A stretch of 64,000 nucleotides of DNA. Origin: Escherichia coli. GTDB taxonomy: Bacteria; Pseudomonadota; Gammaproteobacteria; Enterobacterales; Enterobacteriaceae. The translations under genes were made by a program, and so were the position numbers. Where the stretch lies: NCBI RefSeq assembly GCF_044324785.1, contig NZ_CP172127.1. One strand, given 5' to 3'. Below the pieces are notes generated by a model. It was not told the DNA's origin and ran no database searches. It saw nothing but the letters and a program-made list of their open reading frames with translations. Below are positions 2,123 through 30,985 of the stretch, in pieces (the first letter of the stretch is position 1; each line of letters begins with the position of its first letter).

Positions 2123-3316
2123 ATGACAACATTACTTAACCCGTATTTTGGTGAGTTTGGCGGCATGTACGTGCCACAAATCCTGATGCCTGCTCTGCGC
2201 CAGCTGGAAGAAGCTTTTGTCAGCGCGCAAAAAGATCCTGAATTTCAGGCTCAGTTCAACGACCTGCTGAAAAACTATGCCGGGCGTCCAACCGCACTAA
2301 CCAAATGCCAGAACATTACGGCTGGCACTAACACCACGCTGTATCTCAAGCGCGAAGATTTGCTGCACGGCGGCGCGCATAAAACCAACCAGGTGCTCGG
2401 CCAGGCTTTGCTGGCGAAGCGGATGGGTAAAACGGAAATCATCGCCGAAACCGGAGCCGGTCAGCATGGCGTGGCGTCGGCCCTTGCCAGCGCCCTGCTC
2501 GGCCTGAAATGTCGCATTTATATGGGTGCCAAAGACGTCGAGCGCCAGTCGCCTAACGTTTTTCGTATGCGTTTAATGGGTGCGGAAGTGATCCCGGTGC
2601 ATAGCGGTTCCGCGACGCTGAAAGATGCCTGTAATGAGGCGCTACGCGACTGGTCCGGCAGTTATGAAACCGCGCACTATATGCTGGGCACCGCAGCTGG
2701 CCCGCATCCTTACCCGACCATTGTGCGTGAGTTTCAGCGGATGATTGGCGAAGAAACGAAAGCGCAGATTCTGGAAAGAGAAGGTCGTCTGCCGGATGCC
2801 GTTATCGCCTGTGTTGGCGGCGGTTCGAATGCCATCGGTATGTTTGCAGATTTCATCAACGAAACCGACGTCGGCCTGATTGGTGTGGAGCCTGGTGGTC
2901 ACGGTATCGAAACTGGCGAGCACGGCGCACCGTTAAAACATGGTCGCGTGGGCATCTATTTCGGTATGAAAGCGCCGATGATGCAAACCGAAGACGGGCA
3001 GATTGAAGAATCTTACTCCATCTCCGCCGGACTGGATTTCCCGTCTGTCGGCCCACAACACGCGTATCTTAACAGCACTGGACGCGCTGATTACGTGTCA
3101 ATTACCGATGATGAAGCACTGGAAGCCTTCAAAACGCTGTGCCTGCACGAAGGGATTATCCCGGCGCTGGAATCCTCCCACGCCCTGGCCCATGCGCTGA
3201 AAATGATGCGCGAAAACCCGGAAAAAGAGCAGCTACTGGTGGTTAACCTTTCCGGTCGCGGCGATAAAGACATCTTCACCGTTCACGATATTTTGAAAGC
3301 ACGAGGGGAAATCTGA
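2123..3316 (+). CDS. trpB: Tryptophan synthase beta chain
   Basis: 397-aa ORF ([25 protein letters not shown]…) recognised as TrpB; AGGA RBS upstream. Confidence 0.97.
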
Positions 3317-4122
3317 TGGAACGCTACGAATCTCTGTTTGCCCAGTTGAAGGAGCGCAAAGAAGGCGCATTCGTTCCTTTCGTCACGCTCGGGGATCCAG
3401 GCATTGAGCTGTCATTGAAAATTATCGATACGCTAATTGAAGCCGGTGCTGACGCGCTGGAGTTAGGCATCCCCTTCTCCGACCCACTGGCAGATGGCCC
3501 GACGATTCAAAACGCCACACTGCGTGCCTTTGCGGCAGGTGTGACCCCGGCGCAGTGCTTTGAGATGCTGGCACTCATTCGCCAGAAGCACCCGACCATT
3601 CCGATCGGCCTTTTGATGTATGCCAACCTGGTGTTTAACAAAGGCATTGATGAGTTTTATGCCCAGTGCGAGAAAGTCGGCGTCGATTCGGTGCTGGTTG
3701 CCGATGTGCCAGTGGAAGAGTCCGCGCCCTTCCGCCAGGCCGCGTTGCGTCATAATGTCGCACCTATCTTTATTTGCCCGCCGAATGCCGACGATGATTT
3801 GCTGCGCCAGATAGCCTCCTACGGCCGTGGATACACCTATTTATTGTCACGTGCGGGCGTGACCGGTGCAGAAAACCGCGCCGCGTTACCCCTCAATCAT
3901 CTGGTCACGAAGCTGAAAGAATACAATGCTGCGCCTCCATTGCAGGGATTTGGGATTTCCTCCCCGGATCAGGTAAAAGCAGCGATTGATGCAGGAGCTG
4001 CGGGCGCGATTTCTGGTTCGGCCATCGTTAAAATCATCGAGCAACATATTAATGAGCCAGAGAAAATGCTGGCGGCACTGAAAGCTTTTGTACAACCGAT
4101 GAAAGCGGCGACGCGCAGTTAA
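3316..4122 (+). CDS. trpA: Tryptophan synthase alpha chain
   Basis: 268-aa ORF ([28 protein letters not shown]…) recognised as TrpA; start overlaps trpB stop by 1 nt (ATGA). Confidence 0.97.
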
Positions 4123-4128
4123 TCCCAC

Positions 4129-4156
4129 AGCCGCCAGTTCCGCTGGCGGCATTTTA
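4129..4156 (+). terminator. Rho-independent terminator of the trp operon (trp t)
   Basis: GC-rich hairpin GCCGCCAG-ttccg-CTGGCGGC followed by ATTTT, 7 nt after the trpA stop. Confidence 0.8.
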
Positions 4157-4502
4157 ACTTTCGTTAACGAAGCCGGAAAAATCCTAAATTCATTTATTAT
4201 TTATCTTTTTACCGTTTCGCTTACCCCTGTCGAACGTCAACTTACGTCATTTTTCCGCCCAACAGTAATATAATCAAACAAATTAATCCCGCAACATAAC
4301 ACCAGTAAGATCAATAATTTTCTCTAAGTCACTTATTCCTCAGGCAATTGCTAATACATCCAGAACGTTTCTCAAAATATATTTTTCCACTTTCTTCTCG
4401 TTACGCTTAATTTGACTAATTTTCATTAGTGACTAATTTTAATGAGTGTCGACACACAACACTCATATTAATGAAACAATGCAACGCAACGGGAGAAATA
4501 AC

Positions 4503-4682
4503 ATGGCCGAACATCGTGGTGGTTCAGGAAATTTCGCCGAAGACCGTGAAAAGGCATCCGACGCTGGCCGTAAAGGCGGTCAGCATAGCGGCGGTAATTT
4601 TAAAAATGATCCGCAACGCGCATCCGAAGCGGGTAAAAAAGGCGGTCAACAAAGCGGTGGTAATAAATCAGGAAAATCCTGA
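4503..4682 (+). CDS. yciG: Stress-induced KGG-repeat protein YciG (59 aa)
   Basis: Track ORF 4446..4682 over-extends; start placed at internal ATG 4503 to give MAEHRGGSGNFAEDREKASDAGRKGGQHSGGNFKNDPQRASEAGKKGGQQSGGNKSGKS, matching YciG. Confidence 0.8.
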   Translation: MAEHRGGSGNFAEDREKASDAGRKGGQHSGGNFKNDPQRASEAGKKGGQQSGGNKSGKS

Positions 4683-4767
4683 TTCACCGTTAATTATTAA
4701 TATCAGCTGATAAAGATAATTGCATCTGCGGGCCGTATGGCTCGCAGTGATTTCACTGGAGAAAAAT

Positions 4768-5268
4768 ATGAATATGAAGACCATTGAAGATGTATTTAAT
4801 CACCTGCTTTCAGATACCTACAGCGCAGAAAAACAATTAACCCGGGCACTGGCAAAACTCGCAAGAGCAACATCAAATGAAAAATTAAGTCAGGCTTTTC
4901 ATGCGCACCTCGAGGAAACTCATGGACAGATTGAACGTATTGATCAAGTTGTGGAATCCGAATCGAACCTGAAAATTAAGCGCATGAAATGTGTGGCAAT
5001 GGAAGGTCTCATTGAAGAAGCTAATGAGGTCATCGAAAGCACCGAGAAAAACGAAGTGCGTGATGCCGCACTGATTGCCGCTGCACAGAAAGTCGAGCAC
5101 TATGAGATCGCCAGTTACGGGACATTAGCGACGCTGGCTGAACAATTAGGTTACCGTAAAGCAGCGAAGCTTCTGAAAGAAACTCTTGAAGAAGAAAAGG
5201 CCACCGACATCAAACTGACTGATCTGGCCCTTAATAACGTAAATAAGAAAGCCGAAAATAAAGCCTGA
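4768..5268 (+). CDS. yciF: Ferritin-like (DUF892) stress protein YciF
   Basis: Start placed at MNMKTIEDVF (ATG 4768) inside the longer track ORF; 166 aa matches YciF. Confidence 0.85.
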   Translation: MNMKTIEDVFNHLLSDTYSAEKQLTRALAKLARATSNEKLSQAFHAHLEETHGQIERIDQVVESESNLKIKRMKCVAMEGLIEEANEVIESTEKNEVRDAALIAAAQKVEHYEIASYGTLATLAEQLGYRKAAKLLKETLEEEKATDIKLTDLALNNVNKKAENKA

Positions 5269-5313
5269 AATATGAACTTTAACTTTTAGTCATTTTATAA
5301 ATAGGACATTTTC

Positions 5314-5820
5314 ATGAATCGTATTGAACATTATCATGACTGGTTACGTGACGCCCACGCAATGGAAAAGCAAGCCGAATCTATGCTTGAATCCATGGCT
5401 AGTCGTATAGATAATTATCCTGAACTACGCGCTCGTATTGAACAACATCTTAGTGAAACCAAAAACCAGATTGTTCAACTGGAAACTATTCTTGATCGTA
5501 ATGACATTTCACGTTCAGTCATTAAAGATTCCATGAGTAAAATGGCTGCGCTTGGGCAGTCAATCGGTGGTATATTCCCTTCTGATGAAATAGTCAAAGG
5601 CTCTATTAGCGGATATGTCTTCGAGCAATTTGAAATCGCCTGTTACACCTCACTATTAGCAACAGCAAAAAATGCCGGTGATACAGCTTCAATTCCAACC
5701 ATCGAAGCGATTTTAAATGAGGAAAAAGAAATGGCCGACTGGCTGATTCAGCATATTCCGCAAACAACTGAGAAATTTTTAATTCGCTCTGAAACTGATG
5801 GCGTAGAAGCGAAGAAATAA
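5314..5820 (+). CDS. yciE: Ferritin-like (DUF892) stress protein YciE
   Basis: 168-aa ORF MNRIEHYHDWLRDAHAMEKQ…; paralog of and adjacent to yciF. Confidence 0.85.
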   Translation: MNRIEHYHDWLRDAHAMEKQAESMLESMASRIDNYPELRARIEQHLSETKNQIVQLETILDRNDISRSVIKDSMSKMAALGQSIGGIFPSDEIVKGSISGYVFEQFEIACYTSLLATAKNAGDTASIPTIEAILNEEKEMADWLIQHIPQTTEKFLIRSETDGVEAKK

Positions 5821-5844
5821 TACCCTTTATACCATGTCCTTATT

Positions 5845-5870
5845 GACCCCGTAATTACGGGGTCATTTTT
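5845..5870 (+). terminator. Rho-independent terminator after yciE
   Basis: Perfect palindrome GACCCCGTAA/TTACGGGGTC followed by ATTTTT. Confidence 0.7.
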
Positions 5871-5878
5871 GTGCGGAA

Positions 5879-6517
5879 TTAAAAACGATATCCTGCTGAG
5901 AACATAAACACCCACGGATCGAGGCGTACGCTATCGTGTTGCTGTGCACCGCCCAGCTTATAACTGGCGGTGGTATCGATATCCATGTACCAGACTGACA
6001 TGTTAACCAACCAGTCACGGTTAATCAGATAATCAACCCCCACCTGCCCGGCTGCTCCCCAGGAGTCTTTCAGACTGAGATCGGAAAGCCCCGCCTCTTT
6101 GCCATGATCGTTAAATCCATTATCAAAGAAGGTGGTGTAGTTAATACCTGCACCAACGTAAGGACGGAATTTGCTGCTGGCATCACCAAAATACCACTGC
6201 GCCATCAGTGTTGGCGGCAGATGATGAACGGTTGCAATATCGCCGGTCGCCCGGGTGCCGATTTTATGGCGGAACGGCGTCGCTGCCAGTAATTCCACAC
6301 CAATGTTGTCGGTCGCCATATAAGTAAACGTCAGGCCCAGTTGAGTGTTATTGGTCACGCTGAATCCACCCAGACTTCCTAACGTACCACCAGCACCTTC
6401 TGTTGGACGTACGGTTGCAGAACCTGCACGCATAAAAAATTCGCCTGCTTCATGCGCAAAGGCACTGCCAGAGAGAAGAGTTGTTACTGCCAAAGCCGCC
6501 ACTGTTAACTTTTTCAT
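5879..6517 (-). CDS. ompW: Outer membrane protein W
   Basis: 212-aa ORF with signal peptide MKKLTVAALAVTTLLSGSAFA and C-terminal …SAGYRF beta-barrel signature; recognised as OmpW. Confidence 0.95.
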   Translation of the reverse strand: MKKLTVAALAVTTLLSGSAFAHEAGEFFMRAGSATVRPTEGAGGTLGSLGGFSVTNNTQLGLTFTYMATDNIGVELLAATPFRHKIGTRATGDIATVHHLPPTLMAQWYFGDASSKFRPYVGAGINYTTFFDNGFNDHGKEAGLSDLSLKDSWGAAGQVGVDYLINRDWLVNMSVWYMDIDTTASYKLGGAQQHDSVRLDPWVFMFSAGYRF

Positions 6518-30716: not shown

Positions 30717-30801
<85 letters not shown>

Positions 30802-30856
30802 TCACTTTCAAAAGTCCGTGAACTCTCAAACGAATCCGCGATTAAATATTCTGCCC

Positions 30857-30943
30857 ATGCGGGGAAGGATGGGAAGCTTCGACCAAGGTGCGACTCGAGC
30901 GCCAGCGAGAAAGCGTTGCCGCAGGCAACGACCCGAAGGGTGA
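30857..30943 (+). CDS. tpr: Protamine-like small basic protein Tpr (29 aa), inside the tyrT 3' repeat unit
   Basis: ATG 30857 to TGA 30941 gives [28 protein letters not shown]; matches the tpr ORF of the tyrT operon as recalled; whether it is translated is uncertain. Confidence 0.45.
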
Positions 30944-30960
30944 AGCGCGCAGCGCTGAGT

Positions 30961-30985
30961 AATCCTTCCCCCACCACCATCACTT
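30961..30985 (+). repeat. Direct repeat of the tRNA-Tyr 3' end (25 bp, period 178 bp)
   Basis: AATCCTTCCCCCACCACCATCACTT occurs at 30783..30807 and again at 30961..30985, exactly 178 bp apart. Confidence 0.8.

Follow-up and report, generated by a model that had tools for sequence, protein, structure and literature searches.

The yciG-yciF-yciE operon is already well studied. Its dependence on RpoS has been reported for both E. coli and Salmonella, silencing of yciG by H-NS/StpA has been published, and McbR/YncC is said to bind the yciG promoter and to activate it. Crystal structures are available for YciF (2GS4 and 4ERU) and YciE (3OGH). Salmonella YciF oxidizes Fe(II) and forms higher oligomers, and its iron binding and ferroxidase activity, measured in a preprint, require Q54, E113 and E143. 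In Salmonella the operon is sigma-S dependent, YncC-activated and H-NS-silenced, and it contains a fourth gene, katN, which encodes a Mn catalase (Pfam E 2e-88). In the same genus, yciG has been listed among the abundant small sigma-S-dependent transcripts, and serovar-specific connections with motility and with the c-di-GMP phosphodiesterase YhjH have been reported.

We analyzed a stretch of E. coli DNA of 64,000 nucleotides, referred to here as the window, in which three open reading frames (4503-5820) are flanked by trpA and ompW:

4503-4682, plus strand: yciG, a 59-aa Gly-rich hydrophilic KGG-repeat protein with about 2.7 repeat units
4768-5268, plus strand: yciF, a 166-aa DUF892 protein of the ferritin-like four-helix-bundle type, ferroxidase by homology
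5314-5820, plus strand: yciE, the second DUF892 paralog, 168 aa

The gene order trpA-yciG-yciF-yciE-ompW is the same as in E. coli K-12 (b1259-b1257), with which the window also shares the promoter boxes, the leader and the terminators. DNA identity to K-12 is 97.8% overall, and the proteins are 100% (YciG), 99% (YciF) and 98% (YciE) identical. ompW is convergent to yciE, with a spacer of 58 nt between them. With this order, these flanks, proteins 98-100% identical to those of K-12 and a single promoter with a published start site upstream of yciG, the locus is very probably the chromosomal yciG-yciF-yciE operon of E. coli, a unit for stationary phase and for osmotic and oxidative stress. A first-pass annotation had described a stress operon with a KGG peptide and two ferritin-like paralogs, and the open reading frames, Pfam and synteny with K-12 bear this out. 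The observation is right but ordinary, and the RpoS-dependent stress regulation inferred along with it is already documented in the literature.

YciG (MAEHRGGSGNFAEDREKASDAGRKGGQHSGGNFKNDPQRASEAGKKGGQQSGGNKSGKS) is preceded by the Shine-Dalgarno sequence GGAG at 4492-4495. The protein contains 24% Gly, has a GRAVY of -1.67 and comprises three [R/K]GG-centred units. It matched the Pfam family KGG (PF10685) in two stretches with an E-value of 8e-18 and 64.8 bits (cutoff 20.4), and both peptides previously quoted as degenerate KGG repeats are present. Like YciG, the KGG-repeat/con-10/hydrophilin stress proteins (YmdF, STM14_1829) are short, Gly-rich, highly hydrophilic, carry KGG repeats and are under sigma-S control. 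YciG itself would be a disordered KGG-repeat protein of the hydrophilin type.

YciF and YciE both matched DUF892 (Pfam PF05974, gathering threshold 23.7 bits) over the full-length domain, with E 3e-51 and 174 bits for YciF and E 2e-50 and 172 bits for YciE. In a pairwise alignment the two are 23% identical (E 5e-7), in line with the earlier description of yciF and yciE as tandem DUF892 paralogs. A Rubrerythrin profile gave a weak match (E 0.006) in the Pfam search of the window proteins, and NCBIfam returned no match for YciG, YciF or YciE, though RefSeq annotations name all three. Against the PDB, YciF matched 2GS4 (E 3e-97) and Salmonella 4ERU (E 7e-86), and YciE matched 3OGH (E 2e-107). Structure and metal binding had been named as ways to check the locus: crystal structures of near-identical proteins exist for both, and the metal-site residues Q54, E113 and E143 are all retained in the YciF of the window. 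The YciE residues aligned to these three are Q, E and E, and in the pairwise alignment YciE lacks two YciF histidines (H52 is replaced by K, H111 by Q). Ferritin and rubrerythrin share with YciF and YciE the four-helix bundle with a carboxylate-bridged two-metal site, but DUF892 is a separate family and is not known to form a 24-mer cage. YciF and probably also YciE are likely di-metal ferritin-like proteins, which would oxidize and sequester iron and may thereby limit damage by reactive oxygen; for YciE, such an activity is a prediction. The earlier statement that the functions of all three proteins are poorly defined still holds for YciG, which remains mechanistically undefined, but it is partly outdated for YciF and YciE in view of the structures and the ferroxidase activity of Salmonella YciF.

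Transcription of the operon is very probably driven by one promoter, with 16 nt between its two boxes:

4412-4417, plus strand: -35 box TTGACT, within copy 1 (4413-4429) of a direct repeat
4433-4442, plus strand: sigma-S-type extended -10, C-TAATTT-TAA, with the C at -13, within copy 2 (4430-4446) of the repeat
4448, plus strand: transcription start site of yciGFE, transferred from K-12 by alignment, giving a leader of 55 nt

In Table S1 of Kim et al. 2012, the K-12 start site is placed at 1314114 on the minus strand, with a 5'UTR of 55 nt and an upstream sequence ending in ...AATTTTAATGAGTG. The -50 to +1 sequence of that table aligns to 4398-4448, and the window equals K-12 exactly from the -10 box to the ATG. 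No internal start sites for yciF or yciE are contained in the published list. Among 18 enterobacterial sequences, TTTGA is invariant in the -35 region and is followed by C in at least 90%, while the -10 region always has C, T and A at 4433-4435 and TT at 4439-4440. The pattern CTAnnnT-T[AT][ATG] was present in 19 of 21 sequences, and in all 19, which represent about a dozen genera, the distance between the boxes is constant at 16 nt. E. coli alleles show no variation in the two boxes or from +1 to +31, while the spacer is variable.

The sigma-S -10 consensus (KCTAYRCTTAA-like; Weber et al. 2005, Typas/Hengge) carries a C at -13 and continues beyond the hexamer with a TAA/T-rich extension. The yciG -10 element, C4433-TAATTT-TAA, has both features, the C at -13 and the TAA that trails the hexamer, by which RpoS (sigma-S)-selective promoters are typically recognized. 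This register would predict a start 2 nt upstream of the mapped site, 4448. A simple sigma-70 promoter scan of the spacer flagged nothing; it missed the -10 because the hexamer matches TATAAT at just 3 of 6 positions, and the scan is uninformative here. The yciGFE locus is unmentioned in the sigma-S ChIP-seq paper.

Short direct repeats had been noted twice around 4410 to 4440. Indeed, exact copies of TGACTAATTTT lie at 4413-4423 and 4430-4440, embedded in two tandem 17-nt units (4413-4429 and 4430-4446) that agree at 15 of 17 positions. Of 2000 dinucleotide-shuffled versions of the spacer, only 12 had a perfect direct repeat of 11 nt inside 40 nt, so the 11-mer repeat exceeds chance in the spacer of the window. 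The tandem could then be a true regulatory repeat, providing two adjacent sites for one factor, for example McbR/YncC or a direct-repeat-binding response regulator. Its 17-nt period could set two such sites about 1.6 helical turns apart, and binding of McbR at the yciG promoter has been reported; a factor lying across both boxes would repress, however, whereas McbR is described as an activator. Moreover, the repeat is imperfect elsewhere. K-12 has TGACTAATTCT / CGACTAATTTT in its place, with 13 of 17 positions identical in the tandem pair, and other E. coli alleles differ again. It is two spacer SNPs relative to K-12, T4423 and T4430, that make the 11-mer exact in the window. The segment 4380-4480 was found at 99% identity or more in only 23 of 4718 genomes, which is also the upper limit for the exact repeat; the exact 11-mer is a rare allele. 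Across genera, conservation is confined to the two promoter boxes and the repeat itself is not kept: only TTTGACT remains of copy 1 and only the CTAnnnTTAA part of copy 2, which are the RNA polymerase contacts and share no motif for a common factor. We consider a regulatory repeat very improbable. The direct repeat is the -35 and -10 boxes of the promoter, which look like a repeat because they happen to share GACTAAT. The repeat itself was correctly seen, but its regulatory sense did not hold up, and it is not worth pursuing as a regulatory element.

The region between trpA and the promoter contains further elements:

4130-4150, plus strand: trp t, a hairpin acting as intrinsic terminator for the trp operon, with ATTTT behind it (9 pairs including 7 GC in the terminator scan)
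4156-4410, plus strand: C-rich, G-poor, AT-rich spacer of 255 nt (63 C vs 24 G)
4374-4385, no strand assigned: perfect 12-bp AT palindrome AAAATATATTTT, 63-74 nt upstream of the start site

The trp t hairpin (-18.1 kcal/mol, z -5.2) lies 8 nt past the stop codon of trpA. When 4050-5950 was searched permissively against Rfam, no family reached its gathering score, and the sole signal was a sub-threshold sroD match over this hairpin (21.9 vs 50 bits). The spacer at 4160-4502 comprises 343 nt with 33.8% GC (34-36% across the figures obtained for the spacer), compared to 54.5% for trpBA and 49.7% for the whole window. The upstream region of roughly 340 bp is thus AT-rich, as first described, but not all of it is promoter, since trp t and the C-rich tract occupy its first part. 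The C/G ratio of 4156-4410 is 2.6 and reaches 4.0 in the best 78-nt segment, at 4247, a value beyond the 99.9th percentile for the window; the GC skew at 4200-4399 is -0.51.

According to a passage citing Mott, Galloway and Platt (1985), trp t' lies in the untranslated stretch that follows the trp operon and is a Rho-dependent terminator. The window has the same tandem arrangement, a strong hairpin after trpA and then an untranslated C-rich, G-poor tract with the composition of a rut region. The tract at 4156-4410 fits the known trp t' region, whose coordinates we infer here from base composition and the literature. Transcription of the trp operon would be stopped first at the trp t hairpin and then in the Rho-dependent C-rich region at about 4156-4410, which would insulate yciGFE from trp read-through. 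The same AT-rich region would also be the substrate for silencing by H-NS; the high-affinity H-NS motif TCGWTWAATT had no match in 4160-4500 and was not enriched in the window. An ATATAT motif is reportedly part of the sites found for McbR by ChIP-seq in K-12. The palindrome AAAATATATTTT is identical in four of five E. coli alleles, the allele of M00057 carrying one substitution at 4375, and it is a candidate site for McbR/YncC or another regulator.

Downstream of yciG, two structures were identified:

4726-4747, plus strand: GC-rich stem-loop between yciG and yciF (CTGCGGGCC-GTAT-GGCTCGCAG), found by folding, covariation and conservation
5844-5865, plus strand: intrinsic terminator at the operon end (terminator scan: 9 pairs, then TTTTTGTG)

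The intercistronic stem-loop has a folding energy of -18.6 kcal/mol (z -3.4). RNAalifold predicted 10 pairs from 14 sequences of about 10 genera, and 97% of the alignment cells were paired, compared to 30-39% when the partners were slid. The covariation score was 0.43 vs 0.23 in shuffles, none of 500 being as high. A T-rich tail follows the stem-loop in most genera and is weak in E. coli; the tail in the window is TGATTTCAC, and the terminator scan did not call the stem-loop a terminator. The stem-loop is presumably a leaky terminator or 3'-stabilizer bounding a short yciG transcript. It probably ends or stabilizes a share of the transcripts, which would leave more yciG than yciFE mRNA. This role is our inference, and termination at 4726-4747 is uncertain in E. 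coli because the hairpin lacks a good U-tract. Transcription of the operon would end at 5844-5865 (-16.4 kcal/mol, z -4.4), which lies within the 58-nt spacer shared with ompW.

The locus was found in 4735 of 5426 complete E. coli genomes, among which strain N3 is the only one with at least 99% identity to the locus of the window. Its base composition and its distribution could suggest a recently acquired foreign island that owes its AT-richness to the donor genome. The GC content of yciF and yciE is 40-44%, compared to about 50% for the window, and the locus is silenced by H-NS. It is missing in about 690 of the 5426 genomes, in about 271 of which trpA directly adjoins ompW with a different terminator. 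Several of these absences, however, are plainly secondary and represent IS1-mediated deletions. The position between trpA and ompW is limited to Escherichia and Salmonella, and other genera carry the operon elsewhere; yet the order yciG-yciF-yciE and the same promoter architecture were found in about a dozen enterobacterial genera, with protein identities of 68-87%, roughly as vertical descent predicts. Since Salmonella has the operon at the same site, yciGFE predates the split of Escherichia and Salmonella. Recent foreign origin is therefore unlikely.

The Salmonella operon shares with the window the -35 box, the 16-nt spacer, the CTAATTTTAA -10, GTGTCGACAC at the start site and the intercistronic hairpin. 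It differs by the presence of katN, which the window lacks and which was lost in Escherichia. Upstream of the -35 box, the two operons differ entirely and have unrelated sequences; reportedly, such upstream differences underlie the differing regulation in E. coli and Salmonella.

One further element straddles the start site:

4442-4466, no strand assigned: inverted repeat ATGAGTGT-N9-ACACTCAT, containing the 10-bp palindrome GTGTCGACAC at 4445-4454

The GT-N2-AC core of GTGTCGACAC has a form typical of GntR-family sites. The inverted repeat is invariant in five E. coli alleles; in Salmonella, GTGTCGACAC is retained and the flanks have diverged. Read as RNA, the repeat could be a 5'-terminal hairpin stabilizing the yciGFE mRNA, the Escherichia counterpart of the leader hairpins of other Enterobacteriaceae, whose structure is conserved and whose sequence is variable. 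With a start at or before 4442, it would fold with -8.9 kcal/mol (z -1.6), and 12 of 12 leaders of other genera carry a 6-12 bp stem between about +9 and +38, with differing sequences and z-scores of -0.6 to -3.2. These leader folds are out of register between genera and were judged singly against shuffles, being individually weak, and RNAalifold on a MAFFT alignment of the leaders found no common structure. Because the start site is at 4448, the 5' arm is mostly untranscribed and transcripts retain just 2 nt of it; the resulting leader is unstructured (-1.0 kcal/mol, z +1.1). In addition, relative to the hairpins of the other genera, the E. coli repeat is shifted by about 15 nt towards the -10 box. 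An RNA hairpin at this position is thus highly unlikely. The inverted repeat may possibly be an operator at the DNA level. That GTGTCGACAC specifically serves a repressor at +1 as a so far undescribed operator, having replaced the leader RNA hairpin of other Enterobacteriaceae in the Escherichia/Salmonella lineage, is an unlikely proposal.

As the operon, its regulation by RpoS, H-NS and McbR, the structures and the YciF ferroxidase activity are all in print, the value of the locus as a discovery is small. The present analysis adds the conserved yciG-yciF stem-loop, the loss of katN in Escherichia and the presence/absence polymorphism of the locus. Its useful product is the annotation of the 380-nt trpA-yciG spacer, with trp t, a trp t'-like rut tract, a sigma-S promoter and the start site. 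If GTGTCGACAC did prove to be an operator, the same operon would have swapped a post-transcriptional leader element for DNA-level control in Escherichia and Salmonella.

The three open reading frames between trpA and ompW had been assigned in the first-pass annotation to yciGFE, encoding a KGG-repeat peptide and two DUF892 paralogs, and the open reading frames, Pfam matches and identity to K-12 all agree with this assignment. The features of the locus are as follows:

3316-4122: trpA, upstream flank of the three-ORF block
4130-4150: trp t terminator directly after trpA, a strong hairpin with a T-run behind it (-18.1 kcal/mol, z -5.2)
4411-4417: -35 box, block TTTGAC(T), from enterobacterial conservation
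4433-4442: -10 box, C-TA-NNN-T-TAA, exactly 16 nt after the TTGACT hexamer
4503-4682, plus strand: yciG, 59 aa, Pfam KGG (E 8e-18) in two stretches
4768-5268, plus strand: yciF, 166 aa, DUF892 (E 3e-51)
5314-5820, plus strand: yciE, 168 aa, DUF892 (E 2e-50)
5844-5865: operon-end terminator, closing yciGFE
5879-6517, minus strand: ompW, convergent downstream flank

YciF and YciE share 23% identity in a protein alignment (E 5e-7), and crystal structures are matched by YciF (2GS4, 4ERU) and by YciE (3OGH). YciG contains three [R/K]GG-centred units, with 24% glycine and a GRAVY of -1.67, and both previously quoted peptides were found within its 59 aa. All three proteins are 98-100% identical to those of K-12. 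Using Megablast, we found the order trpA, yciG, yciF, yciE, ompW in 4735 of 5426 complete E. coli genomes; K-12 derivatives match the window locus at 97.8% identity, and among the 5426 genomes strain N3 alone is at least 99% identical. The block is the known yciGFE operon, an ordinary locus.

A direct repeat in the upstream region had been taken as regulatory. Indeed, TGACTAATTTT is present in two exact copies, at 4413 and 4430, within a 17-nt tandem pair, and when the spacer was dinucleotide-shuffled 2000 times, an exact 11-nt repeat within 40 nt arose 12 times. We retrieved 80 loci that encode relatives of YciF and, for 20 enterobacterial loci, compared the 130 nt 5' of yciG. Two conserved blocks were observed, and these are the -35 and -10 boxes of the yciG promoter; in the latter, C, T, A, T and T are the same in all 18 aligned sequences. 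RpoS-selective promoters are typified by a C at -13 and a TAA extension, and the mapped yciG promoter is of the sigma-S type. A simple sigma-70 scan did not pick it up, because TAATTT matches TATAAT at three positions only. In K-12, yciG starts at 1314114 (minus strand), its leader is 55 nt long and the sequence before the start is listed as ...TTTGACTAATTCTCATTAGCGACTAATTTTAATGAGTG (Kim et al. 2012, Table S1); the same table contains no start for yciF or yciE. The K-12 start corresponds to window 4448, 2 nt downstream of the position predicted from the -10 register.

Since the repeat copies coincide with the conserved boxes, which lie upstream of the mapped start, the repeat is the two boxes of the promoter; both happen to contain GACTAAT. 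The K-12 counterpart reads TGACTAATTCT / CGACTAATTTT and is therefore not the exact pair, and other E. coli alleles differ at precisely the non-box positions. Only 23 of 4718 genomes are at least 99% identical over 4380-4480, and this segment varies more than the operon's coding part (90-95% identity in 3559 of 4718 genomes vs 97-98% across the locus as a whole). In the five E. coli alleles compared, both boxes and +1 to +31 are invariant, and in other genera the boxes alone are retained, not the repeat. The repeat as such is not conserved, and we rejected it as a regulatory element, although its exact copies are real.

The upstream region had also been described as a promoter region of roughly 340 bp. 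Its AT-richness was borne out, as the spacer (4160-4502) has 33.8% GC vs 49.7% for the window, but we infer that most of it is the tail of the trp operon, with its terminators, rather than promoter. The 255 nt from 4156 to 4410 are strikingly C-rich and G-poor (63 C, 24 G; GC skew -0.51), and the best 78-nt segment reaches a C/G ratio of 4.0, exceeding the window's 99.9th percentile. Rho-utilisation regions have this composition. The trp t' terminator lies about 250 nt beyond trp t. It has been described in the literature as a Rho-dependent terminator in the untranslated stretch that follows the trp operon. Such a C-rich tail would insulate yciGFE against trp read-through.

According to the literature, yciGFE depends on RpoS, is silenced by H-NS and StpA, is induced by osmotic, acid and bile stress, and is activated by McbR/YncC, which binds the yciG promoter. 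As the tract 4156-4410 is AT-rich, it is likely the substrate of H-NS/StpA silencing; a motif search found no H-NS high-affinity motif in it. A 2026 Reg-Seq preprint names yciGFE a candidate target of an unidentified osmotic-shock activator, with TCCTAAAAT as the right half of its motif. At 4181-4189, roughly 260 nt before the start site, TCCTAAATT matches this half at 8 of 9 positions.

Folded from the mapped start, the E. coli yciG leader shows no structure (-1.0 kcal/mol, z +1.1). At 4442-4466 lies an inverted repeat, ATGAGTGT-N9-ACACTCAT, which includes the palindrome GTGTCGACAC; because the repeat straddles the start site, it cannot form an RNA hairpin. It is invariant in the five E. coli alleles, and the palindrome is kept in Salmonella despite differing flanks. 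Klebsiella, Enterobacter, Citrobacter, Kosakonia and other genera have a 6-12-bp leader hairpin at about +9 to +38, with stems such as GATACG/CGTATC, GATGCG/TGCATC, GACGACAT/ATGTCGT and GAACATGA/TCATGTTC. All 12 leaders tested from such genera had negative z-scores, each modest individually. The constant position of this stem-loop outside Escherichia and Salmonella (comparison loci L006-L023, e.g. L006 3659-3724), together with a stem sequence that varies by clade, suggests selection on the RNA structure. No Rfam family covers it. Elsewhere in the window, Rfam gathering-score matches were a tRNA followed by an RtT element (30717-30979, plus strand) and the antitoxin RNA rdlD (47111-47176, minus strand).

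Between yciG and yciF lies a GC-rich stem-loop at 4726-4747 (-18.6 kcal/mol, z -3.4), conserved across about 10 genera (14 sequences). Pairing holds in 97% of the alignment cells vs 30-39% with partners slid; compensatory changes occur at three pairs, and none of 500 shuffles reached the observed covariation score. The tail behind it is T-rich in most genera and weak in E. coli. We interpret the hairpin as a leaky terminator or 3' stabiliser, which could yield a short yciG transcript beside the full operon mRNA. This would fit the listing of yciG among abundant small sigma-S-dependent transcripts in Salmonella (literature).

The operon varies in content and placement. A Mn-catalase gene, katN (Pfam E 2e-88), follows yciE in Salmonella, Klebsiella, Enterobacter, Lelliottia, Leclercia, Phytobacter and Kosakonia, whereas the window contains neither katN nor a remnant, and its yciE-ompW spacer is 58 nt; Escherichia has lost the catalase. 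In 34 of the 80 loci (L004 5104-5982 and 33 others), yciF has a Mn-catalase gene no more than 4 kb away; as these loci range from Enterobacteriaceae to Burkholderia, Pseudomonas and Xanthomonas, the pairing of DUF892 and catalase genes is widespread. Among the loci compared, placement between trpA and ompW is limited to Escherichia and Salmonella. A second KGG-repeat gene, whose product shares 92% identity with the window YciG over 51 aa, lies about 1.2 kb upstream of yciG in Phytobacter diazotrophicus and Kosakonia sp. S29 (L019 2447-2599, L021 2397-2549).

The locus is absent from about 690 of 5426 E. coli genomes. In about 271 complete genomes trpA adjoins ompW at 50 nt, with a different bidirectional terminator, AAACCGCCAGAAAACATCTGGCGGTTT (L084 1180-1300, O99:H6 CU42ET-1), a longer ompW (654 nt) and flanks only about 92% identical to the window; in others IS1 takes the place of yciGFE. 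In strain D8 (CP010151; L086 1-158 vs window 4350-4830), an internal deletion removes yciG and the yciF start, fusing the leader, from just after AATGAAAC (about +31), to yciF at about codon 11; the annotation there has yciF as a truncated gene of 483 nt immediately after the promoter. Beraud et al. (2010) reportedly already noted rearrangements at yciGFE, and possible horizontal transfer.

Salmonella YciF needs Q54, E113 and E143 to form oligomers, to bind iron and to show ferroxidase activity (literature). The window YciF has all three, and the corresponding YciE residues are Q, E and E. YciG has been classed as a hydrophilin and linked to motility, and in S. Paratyphi A it interacts with the c-di-GMP phosphodiesterase YhjH in a two-hybrid assay (literature). 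The earlier remark that the functions of these proteins are poorly defined is thus only partly true: it holds for YciG and in part for YciE, but for YciF it is out of date.

The conserved yciG-yciF stem-loop, the leader hairpins of other genera vs the start-site palindrome of Escherichia and Salmonella, and the rarity of the window's promoter allele are new but minor, and they leave the overall picture unchanged: the supposed regulatory repeat in a long promoter resolves to sigma-S-type -35 and -10 boxes preceded by the trp terminators.
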